A DNA stretch of 64,000 bases, from assembly GCA_002719295.1 (NCBI GenBank), contig PBHC01000005.1, positions 64,001-128,000 on the forward strand, read 5' to 3'. Under the pieces are notes generated by a model. It saw only the letters and a list, made by a program, of their open reading frames with translations. It made no database searches and was not told the origin of the DNA. This document shows positions 57,556 to 59,873 of this stretch, in pieces. Position 1 is the first letter of the stretch. Every line of letters starts with the position of its first letter. A program made the translations under genes and the position numbers. This DNA comes from Chloroflexota bacterium. GTDB taxonomy: Bacteria > Chloroflexota > Dehalococcoidia > Lucifugimonadales > Lucifugimonadaceae.

Positions 57556-57651
57556 AATTTATAAAATATTTTTATAGAAATAGAATTCAATTAAGATTTA
57601 TATATCGTATTATATATTATAGTTATAGAAGAGAATCTAATAGAGGGTGTT

Positions 57652-58353
57652 ATGGCTGAAGAAAATCATAATTTGTTCCAATTGCAAGAATATGATTTAG
57701 GTATTTTTAACAATGAAGATAAAGTGAATCAGATTCTAAAAAAAATAGATGAAAAACTAGGAATTGATGATCTTAAATCAAAATTAGAATTAATAGAAAA
57801 AAAATTTGAAGATCTTACTAAACTTCAATTAAGAGTGAATCAAATAATAGATCAAACTAGTAATGAAATCAACGAATTAAATACAACTCTATACTCAGGA
57901 AAAATTAGAAATACTAAAGAGGTAGAGGCAATAGAAATTGAAATCAAAAATAAGAATGAACATTTGACATCATATGAATCTAAGATAAGTAAGGTTAATG
58001 AAAATATTACAAAATTAAGTGAAATTAAAGAAAACTATGAGTTGAAAATTTTTTCACTTGAAGAGAAATGGATTGATTTGGAAAAAAAATTTAATTATGA
58101 AATTGAAACCTTAAATAATGATAGGTTGAATCTTGAAGAAAAAAGAGAAGGATTATCAAGAAAATTAGATAAAAACACACTTAACTTATATGATTCTTTT
58201 ATGAAAAAGAGCAGGAATGTTGGAATTTCTAAATTAGACAATAAAATAAGTACTTGTTGTAAAATTGAGCTTCCTAATGCATTTGTAGAGAAAATAAAAA
58301 ATAGCGAATTACCTATAGTATGTAATTGTGGTAAATCTTTAATTTCGGAGTGA
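57652..58353 (+). CDS. DUF164-like coiled-coil / C4 Zn-ribbon protein
   Basis: LFQLQEYD N-terminus, LYSG...KE, long coiled coil, Cys cluster at the C-terminus (TCC...CNCGK). Confidence 0.8.
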   Translation: MAEENHNLFQLQEYDLGIFNNEDKVNQILKKIDEKLGIDDLKSKLELIEKKFEDLTKLQLRVNQIIDQTSNEINELNTTLYSGKIRNTKEVEAIEIEIKNKNEHLTSYESKISKVNENITKLSEIKENYELKIFSLEEKWIDLEKKFNYEIETLNNDRLNLEEKREGLSRKLDKNTLNLYDSFMKKSRNVGISKLDNKISTCCKIELPNAFVEKIKNSELPIVCNCGKSLISE

Positions 58354-58357
58354 TTTT

Positions 58358-59479
58358 TTGAATTGTTTAGCGGTTGTTCATGACGAAAGAAATAGTGAAG
58401 AAATAAATAAAATAAATGAATTTTCTCGTTATGAAAATGTTTCTATAGATTATTATCTTGGTAGACTTGATTTCAAAAAAACCTTTGACTTTATAGTAAA
58501 GAACAATATATCAAAAGTATTTTTATCGGATGCAAATGTTTTAGATAATGATCTAAGCTCTTTTACTGAAAAAATCATAGCATTACATAAAAATAACATT
58601 TCTGTATTGTGTGCTTCTTATGATTTTCCTGACCCATTTCAGCTAGCTATAAGAACATTAAGTTTAAATGGGAAAGATCCTGGCAGAATAAACAAAATAA
58701 AAGATTCAATAAATAAGAAAGCTTCAAGAGGTCAGGTTTTAGGAAAAATTCCCTATGGATATAAAAAAAATCTCACAGGGTTCTTTGAAGAAGATTCATC
58801 TCAGTCAAAAAATGTAAAAAAGATTTTTTCTCTGTATAATCAAAATTTTTCTATTTCGGATATAACTAAGGAATTACAAAATACTTTGTTAACTGAGAAA
58901 TGGTCTAATCAAAAAGTAAAACATATTTTAGAAAATGATTTTTATATTGGAATTTATAGAAGATATAATGTTGTAATCCCTAATTCACACATATCAATAA
59001 TCGATAAAAAAGATTTTGATAATGCAAATAAGAAATTAGATATTGATGATAAAAGATCTTATATAAAGAATTATTGGACGAGATTTCTTTTTTGTGGATT
59101 TTGTTTTAATAAATTATCAATATCTAATCATAAAAATTCATGGATAAGTAAAGGTGAAAGAAAAAGTAAAAATTATAAATATTATATTTGTGATCATAAA
59201 AACTCTGAAATTGGATTTTCAAAAACTCTGAAAATTAAGTATGAAAAATTGAATGATTTATTAGAAATAAATATTAATAAAGAATTGATTTTAGAAAAAA
59301 AATTTGAAGATTCATACGTATATAAATTAATCTCAAAGCTATCTAATTCAAAAATTGTTTTTGATGATTTTATAGAAAAATTTGAAAATTATAAAAAATC
59401 TTCTTTGCAAAATAAAAATATGATTGAAAAGATTTTTATAAAGCAAATGAATAATGAAATATTTATATCCTCTACATAA
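58358..59479 (+). CDS. Large serine recombinase-like protein, catalytic motifs degenerate
   Basis: Recombinase-domain hallmarks G...GKIPYGY, VKKIFSLY, W....VKHILEN.FYIG, H..II....F; Zn-ribbon LFCGFC...YYIC; no YxRxS motif. TTG start after GGAG. Confidence 0.8.
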   Translation: MNCLAVVHDERNSEEINKINEFSRYENVSIDYYLGRLDFKKTFDFIVKNNISKVFLSDANVLDNDLSSFTEKIIALHKNNISVLCASYDFPDPFQLAIRTLSLNGKDPGRINKIKDSINKKASRGQVLGKIPYGYKKNLTGFFEEDSSQSKNVKKIFSLYNQNFSISDITKELQNTLLTEKWSNQKVKHILENDFYIGIYRRYNVVIPNSHISIIDKKDFDNANKKLDIDDKRSYIKNYWTRFLFCGFCFNKLSISNHKNSWISKGERKSKNYKYYICDHKNSEIGFSKTLKIKYEKLNDLLEININKELILEKKFEDSYVYKLISKLSNSKIVFDDFIEKFENYKKSSLQNKNMIEKIFIKQMNNEIFISST

Positions 59480-59527: not shown

Positions 59528-59873
59528 AGGTAAAAGAAAGACGAGTGATCGCTGGCTTTGCCAGAGGAAAGTCCGAGCACCACTAGGATAAAGTGCCTGT
59601 TAACGGCAGGGCAGGGCAACCTGACGGATAGTGCAACAGAAAATATACCGCCATTATGGTAAGGGTGAAAAGGTAAGGTAAGAGCTTACCACAAATTTGG
59701 TAACAAGTTTGGTATTGTAAACCCCACTTGGTGCAAGGCTAAATAGAGGAACGATAAGTTATCCTAGACAGTTCCCGGGTAAGCTGCTCGAGCTAGTTGG
59801 TGACAGCTAGCCTAGATGGATGATCACATCTACATATAGAAACAGAACTCGGCTTATAGTCTTTCTTTTATCT
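59528..59873 (+). ncRNA. rnpB: RNase P RNA (bacterial type A)
   Basis: GAGGAAAGTCC, AGTGCAACAGAAA, AAGGGTGAAAAGG, GGTAAGAGC, ACAGAACTCGGCTTA; P1 helix AGGTAAAAGAAAGAC/GTCTTTCTTTTATCT; TATAAT at 59486-59491. Confidence 0.98.

Follow-up and report, generated by a model that had tools for sequence, protein, structure and literature searches.

The locus

The gene studied here lies in the window, by which we mean the whole 64-kb stretch of DNA that was analysed. Counts out of 91 refer to orthologous loci that were fetched as a subset of the 112 genomes carrying the gene and were chosen to span families. The gene and its surroundings comprise:

57599..57622, + strand: AT-rich block of 24 bp between the divergent pyk and DUF164 genes, kept in most of the genus
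57652..58353, + strand: DUF164/CT398-like coiled-coil zinc-ribbon gene, the conserved upstream neighbour (81/91 loci)
58347..58350, + strand: Shine-Dalgarno-like GGAG, 7 nt 5' of the start of the open reading frame, overlapping the DUF164 stop codon
58358..59479, + strand: large serine recombinase (LSR) homologue of 373 aa, catalytically dead, with a TTG start
59533..59872, + strand: rnpB, RNase P RNA class A (Rfam RF00010, 305.6 bits; 59/91 loci as fetched)

The frame 58358-59479 (+) contains no stop codon, its TTG lies 4 nt past the DUF164 stop codon (TGA, 58351-58353), and the position of this start is identical in all 11 loci of the genus that were compared. Start, GGAG and spacing therefore verify the initial annotation, which had described an intact 373-aa frame with a Shine-Dalgarno sequence 4 nt past DUF164; the distance to rnpB, given there as 48 nt, is 53 nt by the Rfam boundary. 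The neighbours (pyk, DUF164, rnpB and an amidohydrolase) are housekeeping genes, no tRNA was found in the 64-kb window, and no att-like repeats flank the frame, the repeats present being low-complexity AT matches. This agrees with the earlier description of a locus free of cargo, att repeats and phage genes. In metatranscriptome contigs from four of seven runs, rnpB and one 217-nt piece of DUF164 were covered, and the frame itself was without informative cover.

In the window genome, PF02591 fails to detect the DUF164 gene (57652-58353), whose zinc knuckles are degenerate (STCCK...CNC); a local HMM nevertheless identifies it as orthologous, and it is under purifying selection. The AT-rich block at 57599-57622 occurs as a single copy in the window genome and is probably the promoter, an operator role being only a candidate. 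Near-duplicate stretches link contigs C11/C17 and C12/C19 of the window genome, which also gives two rnpA matches; together these probably reflect strain mixing or redundancy in the bin.

Fold and loss of the catalytic residues

The protein has the domain order of an LSR, that is, a resolvase-type N-terminal fold followed by the Recombinase domain (RD) and the zinc-ribbon domain (ZD). Its parts are:

58358..58657, + strand: resolvase-fold N-terminal domain, aa 1-100, without catalytic residues
58373-58387, + strand: V6-E10, in place of YxRxS
58535-58549, + strand: N60-N64, in place of [DS]RLxR
58634..58729, + strand: helix E region, aa 93-124, with a predicted break at aa 101-107, a Pro/Gly-rich N-terminal half and a kept C-terminal half (KxSIxKKAxRG)
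58730..59047, + strand: Recombinase domain (RD/DBD1), aa 125-230, with family-specific Y200 and R202
59048..59257, + strand: zinc ribbon (ZD/DBD2), aa 231-300, with C246, C249 and C278 and a hairpin (aa 254-277) carrying W262 and G266
59258..59476, + strand: shortened coiled-coil tip (two short helices, aa 320-349) and terminal beta-hairpin

The Pfam scan proposed with the initial annotation found Recombinase at residues 149-228 (E 2.9e-13), a weak Zn_ribbon_recom match under the cut-off (E 0.017) and no match to Resolvase in the window protein. Over 83 family members, the same three models match 83, 80 and 27 proteins, respectively. Structure prediction, likewise proposed, returned an LSR fold: the AlphaFold2 model, built on a 27-sequence alignment, has a pLDDT of 84.7, and its best Foldseek matches are the SPbeta, Bxb1, LI/A118 and PhiC31 integrases (E 3e-17 to 1e-9). 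The family profile additionally matches gamma-delta resolvase over positions 1-146, and ESM features of the orthologue P0027 indicate a resolvase-like N-terminal domain.

This fold has lost its active site. In an ungapped comparison with MRAIGYFRES-type orthologues, which sets the register where aligners gap the shortened first loop around V6-E10, V6-V7-H8-D9-E10 occupies the place of YxRxS, with Glu10 at the nucleophilic Ser. N60-V61-L62-D63-N64 stands at [DS]RLxR. The register first proposed for the dead motifs (LAVVHDE for YxRxS, DANVLDND for DRLxR) is thus borne out against the orthologues. For the arginines of [DS]R[LF]xR we use R68 and R71, presumably their gamma-delta resolvase numbers. 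In the joint alignment, the nucleophile column is Ser in 11/91 orthologues and R68 is present in 8/91, but the two occur together in none, contrary to what would be expected if the orthologues had retained the catalytic Ser and Arg. Both arginines are found in three of the 91, all from f31, a family without the YxRxS strand motif. In the mobile LSR controls, a small sample (n=18, many related) in which the invariance of the arginines was checked directly, Y, R, S, R68 and R71 are all present in 18/18. The Ser is essential in LI integrase, where S10A is reported to abolish recombination (PMC5499577). The catalytic set is lost across the whole orthologue family, and we are highly confident that the family is domesticated and incapable of recombination.

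The protein could still be an enzyme if its nucleophile had moved elsewhere or its N-terminal domain had acquired a new chemistry. The N-terminal fold is kept, the dead domain evolves under purifying selection within the genus (dN/dS 0.04-0.19), and a Cys (83/91) and an Asp (D92, 82%) are conserved within it. However, these are the only two columns of aa 1-100 conserved at 80% or more, no polar catalytic constellation is kept, the window protein itself has Ser in place of the Cys, and the N-terminal domain is the least conserved of the folded domains. We consider enzymatic activity very improbable.

DNA-binding domains, helix E and coiled coil

Identity among the orthologues, compared with that among active LSRs, is 24 vs 37% in the catalytic domain, 27 vs 42% in helix E, 49 vs 36% in RD, 45 vs 39% in ZD and 22 vs 28% in the C-terminal region. 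The conservation pattern is inverted relative to active LSRs, having shifted to the DNA-binding domains, and RD, which was annotated from the outset as retained, is the best conserved of all. Any LSR conserves the structural residues of RD and ZD, so that the case for a fixed target comes only from positions specific to the family. These are Y200 (87/91), R202 (90/91) and W262 (85/91), each of which is found in 0/18 actives, and further R258 (79/91; His in the window genus) and G266 (73/91). The hairpin at 254-277 aligns with the long ZD hairpin of SPbeta integrase, which is described as occupying the major groove, its tip placed on bases; the RD hairpin loop of that integrase inserts arginines into the major groove (PMC11722253). 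R202 may be equivalent to these arginines, though the RD hairpin is short here. Y273 aligns with Tyr297 of LI integrase, described as a base contact (PMC3783163). The recognition helix and hairpin have drifted in the window genus (R258 to H, V185 to Q). The zinc ribbon had also been annotated as retained, and this stands as far as C246, C249, C278 and the family-wide Pfam matches (80/83) are concerned, the Pfam match of the window protein itself falling under the cut-off. The fourth Cys is present in 66 of 75 other orthologues vs 3 of 10 genus members, and the fourth ligand position is Cys or His in 8 of these 10.

Helix E and the coiled coil appear eroded. Pro occurs in the N-terminal half of helix E in 41/91 orthologues vs 0/18 actives, and a homodimer prediction for P0027 scored 0.00, which is uninformative either way. 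The tail past the last YYxC measures 91-97 aa in the genus, whereas its median length is 157 aa for the remaining orthologues and 207 aa for active LSRs, so that the short C-terminal coiled coil noted initially is confirmed. The full-length coiled coil is absent from the window protein and only the tip is left. Its helix-Gly-helix is kept (Gly in 77/91) and survives the trimming in the window genus. The tip segment of the orthologues aligns with the CC-CC interface segment of LI integrase, for which L368, Y369 and L379 are reported (PMC5499577), the Y369 position being mostly Ala. At 22% identity the coiled coil is the least conserved region, with dN/dS of up to 0.58 in single pairs. Overall, the sequences indicate erosion of the helix-E interface and of the coiled coil, which goes furthest in the streamlined window genus.

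Distribution, inheritance and selection

A search with the single protein gave a match in 51/61 relatives, including all 13 genus genomes and 35/36 family genomes, a count that takes in a few weak matches, possibly mobile LSRs. With alignment A1, 158/201 Dehalococcoidia genomes gave a match and 112, from 22 families, carry the orthologue, with exactly one top match each and no internal stops. The scores are bimodal: orthologues have E<=4.5e-54 and the next best matches, from 5.3e-39, are mobile LSRs, all 24 of the examined class matches below the gap carrying YxRxS and [DS]R[LF]xR. Under the broad alignment A4, the scores of genus members (209-236 bits) overlap those of the actives (up to 222), so that the assignment of the genus members rests on A1, the tree and synteny. 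Two short genus matches, in G006 and G007, were considered as pseudogenes and rejected, as they end at contig ends.

Carriage tends towards all-or-none by family (12/12 in each of f31, f39 and f44, 11/11 in f51, 0/10 in f42). The orthologue was not found in 89/201 class genomes, among them whole families and complete genomes, and the gene is therefore dispensable. For five non-carriers we considered whether divergent orthologues had been overlooked, and the top matches of a broader profile that were examined proved to be active LSRs; the absences include real losses. In a 251-genome sample of the phylum, genomes from other classes gave no match scoring as high as the orthologues, and the eight best non-class matches comprise five with both catalytic motifs and three broken or truncated frames. 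The phage and viral relatives found are distant, 6/9 viral matches having intact motifs. Source labels of the cluster members read Chloroflexota, Dehalococcoidia and SAR202.

In FastTree analyses with 18 and subsequently 33 active LSRs, the 91 orthologues grouped as a single clade separate from the actives, and all 15 multi-member host families were monophyletic. IQ-TREE, run on 48 of the 91 orthologues and 16 actives with long branches and compositional bias flagged for the AT-rich window genus, supported the orthologue clade with an SH-aLRT of 99; family labels required 12 changes, the minimum possible, compared with a shuffled mean of 30.5. The vertical phylogeny that the initial annotation had called for is therefore recovered, as judged against family labels rather than a marker tree. 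By the Nei-Gojobori method, 10 pairs gave dN/dS values of 0.06-0.24 (0.11-0.20 within the genus), some pairs having dS >1, and these values are similar to those of DUF164 (0.12-0.25). The dead LSR is vertically inherited, single-copy and under purifying selection after the loss of catalysis; neither a patchy distribution with mobile cargo nor neutral evolution was observed.

The same data bear on the possibility that the gene is a pseudogene, the decaying remnant of a prophage or integrative element. The window genus does sit on a long branch, and its proteins are trimmed at the C-terminus and shortened in the first loop. Against this, all complete loci are intact, dN/dS in the genus is low, inheritance is vertical class-wide and neither cargo nor att repeats are present. 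We regard decay as refuted, in line with the first reading of the gene.

The nearest sampled relatives of the dead family are compact active LSRs (L098 in G169, L122 in G109, and P0167), which can serve as controls or stand in for the ancestral form. At another locus (L139, G049 C2:679876-682919), two LSR genes stand back to back, one on each strand; the genome is without the dead family. The descent of the family from integrases, its kept att-type DNA-binding modules and the fact that its closest sampled active relatives (L098, L122) come from the same class would suit a defence decoy, which occupies an attB-like site or poisons incoming integrases and thereby blocks the integration of LSR elements. 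By hand count, however, further LSR-like matches (matches, not copy numbers) occur in 46/112 carriers vs 46/89 non-carriers, so there is no general exclusion of other LSRs. No other LSR was found in the window genome, no PADLOC model matched the window protein, and the helix-E interface that mixed dimers require appears eroded. We therefore give the decoy only a small probability.

History of the locus and its neighbours

The initial annotation had called for orthologues between DUF164 and rnpB, and the 91 loci contain DUF164 in 81 cases, rnpB in 59 and an RNase HI gene in 28, all minimum counts since flanks of only 1-3 kb were fetched. The non-carrier L101 has DUF164-rnhA-rnpB with nothing intervening; the context is thus probably older than the LSR gene, and the simplest history would be that the gene was inserted once between DUF164 and rnhA and was later lost in some lineages. 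In the window order the locus rnhA is gone, and RVT_3 matches there are mostly frames of about 290-350 aa, which suggests that such frames replaced it. An RNase H-like gene lies away from the rnpB locus in G000 (C10:48517-48939).

DUF164 was not found in f31, f54 and G016, and the orthologue is kept in 12/12 f31 genomes without a detected DUF164. An alignment search for DUF164 in f31, run without a positive control, gave 0/5. These absence calls are soft because PF02591 also misses the divergent DUF164 of the window genome. The most divergent orthologues, L064-L066 (f31) and L063 (G016), lie outside the DUF164 context; the f31 members have a shortened N-terminal domain, and a metallophosphoesterase-like gene adjoins in 2/3 loci. 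An obligate partnership with DUF164 is unsupported given the retention of the gene where DUF164 was not found, and an obligate tie to the locus RNase HI is rejected because rnhA left the locus in the window order. As the gene persists in lineages that lost each neighbour, its link with rnpB, DUF164 and RNase HI is mostly historical. Of the proposed co-option in a housekeeping locus, then, the syntenic and vertical part holds, and the functional weight of the neighbours is reduced by their loss in some lineages.

This history also affects the reading of the protein as an RNA- or structure-specific binder that acts with RNase P RNA, RNase HI or DUF164. The conserved DUF164-gene-rnhA-rnpB context (81, 28 and 59 of 91 for the three neighbours) and the tight coupling to DUF164 speak for it, and the invariant hairpin Trp might stack on unpaired bases. 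But DUF164-rnhA-rnpB occurs without the gene in L101, the gene is kept in all 12 f31 genomes, in which DUF164 was not found, rnhA has left the locus in the window order, and RnpA is encoded in 196/201 genomes. Such a role is improbable, if less so than that of a decoy. Replacement of the RNase P protein, considered separately, is rejected on the same RnpA count, and replacement of XerC/D is rejected since 199/201 genomes have XerC/D-like genes.

Proposed function

We propose that the dead LSR is a sequence-specific DNA-binding host protein that acts by occupying its site, most likely in transcription control, and assign this reading a probability of roughly 55%. The cutting residues are lost, yet the gene is intact, single-copy, under selection and held at one chromosomal spot, which makes a host DNA-binding regulator its likely present role. 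The initial annotation had proposed a co-opted host DNA-binding protein; its domestication is well supported by lost catalysis, vertical inheritance and selection, and conservation of RD and ZD suggests the DNA binding. On that conservation, the family probably binds DNA specifically. Between a regulator and a bridging factor, we clearly favour the regulator, the bridging factor keeping a substantial minority share.

The gene may go back to an LSR-bearing element whose integrase stayed behind between DUF164 and rnhA in a forebear of many Dehalococcoidia; the stranded gene would then have come under the operon's sigma-70-type promoter. The protein would read DNA as integrases read an att half-site, through helix H, the RD hairpin (Y200/R202) and the long ZD hairpin in the major groove (R/H258, W262, Y273). 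The canonical synaptic tetramer is probably lost, given the eroded N-terminal half of helix E and coiled-coil arms, and an asymmetric site of about 25 bp may be bound.

We searched for such a site in several ways. Repeated gapped palindromes and k-mers in the 1.27-Mb window genome, a weak test, yielded nothing convincing, the output consisting of AT-rich noise, tRNAs, coding repeats and duplicated contigs. A Gibbs search for a class-wide operator upstream of the operon in 64 genera, also a weak test, returned only the -10 box. The genus-conserved upstream block was found nowhere else in the genome, being present in one copy.

The retained tip allows for a chromosome-architecture factor, in which RD and ZD bind sites and the coiled-coil tip bridges or loops them, as in synapsis without cleavage. 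The alignment of the helix-Gly-helix (Gly 77/91) with the LI CC-CC interface segment and the persistence of the tip even through the trimming in the window genus are consistent with this. The coiled coil is nevertheless the least conserved region, with the Y369 position mostly Ala, no repeated site family was found in the window genome, and XerC/D-like genes are present in nearly all genomes (199/201), so that the protein does not replace them. We hold this reading to be unlikely, though a better candidate than the RNA binder. More specifically, the protein could be a chromosome factor of Dehalococcoidia class-wide (SAR202 and kin) that recognizes one att-like sequence of about 25 bp and uses its coiled-coil tip to loop or tether sites, a doubtful idea to which we give slightly more credit. 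The occupancy-based regulator remains our preferred reading.

Relation to known systems and significance

Serine integrases are familiar as active enzymes that belong to mobile elements. The large serine integrases (SPbeta SprA/YokA 9dxd/9y66, Listeria LI/A118 4kis, Bxb1 9iu2 and PhiC31) share the domain order and the inserted coiled coil with the dead family, and the long ZD hairpin of SPbeta integrase resembles its own. In contrast to them, the dead family is without the Ser/Arg set, cargo and att sites, its helix-E N-terminal half is eroded and its coiled coil short, and it is single-copy and vertically inherited. Mobile LSRs of Dehalococcoidia (L098, L122, L085, L109), from the same class, include its nearest sampled active relatives in the tree; they have YxRxS and [DS]R[LF]xR intact and number zero to several per genome, and the DUF164/rnpB adjacency is absent in all four mobile LSRs checked for context (L085, L086, L097, L098).

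XisF, CcrA/B/C and SpoIVCA are developmental or host-adopted LSRs, active excisases tied to their element. The orthologues give weak NCBIfam matches to XisF and CcrA/B/C, far under the cut-off, and no NCBIfam model reaches its cut-off for the family; chromosomal residence is shared with these recombinases, but the dead family has neither catalytic set nor element. TldR, a transcription repressor derived from TnpB, is a dead DNA-cutting enzyme of a mobile element kept as a DNA-binding regulator. Its fold is unrelated and it is RNA-guided, but the dead LSR family probably works similarly. Chordopoxvirus F16 is described as an inactivated serine-recombinase descendant conserved in a new role, nucleolar and of obscure function (PMC4304020). 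It is viral, whereas the genes of the dead family are bacterial and chromosomal, and the LSR RD and ZD modules form their conserved core. No published description of the dead LSR family was found in the full-text literature searched (PMC6188088 included), a body from which subscription papers are mostly absent.

Domestication is real and well supported, and the mechanism is proposed. Databases label the orthologues 'recombinase family protein', so that tallies of mobile elements could wrongly include them and searches for genome-editing integrases could pick them up. A dead integrase that has become a fixed part of the core genome in about half of the class points to an unrecognised host function, and it is kept even in streamlined marine genomes of 1.3 Mb in which no other LSR was found. 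It also points to a route by which the DNA-reading modules of integrases become regulators. The family offers a natural map of the RD and ZD residues that fix target specificity, with the trimmed 373-aa form of the marine lineage as a minimal module. If a looping factor with a site of about 25 bp proved true, the family would represent a novel kind of chromosome organiser or global regulator in bacteria, one that uses the scaffold of an integrase.
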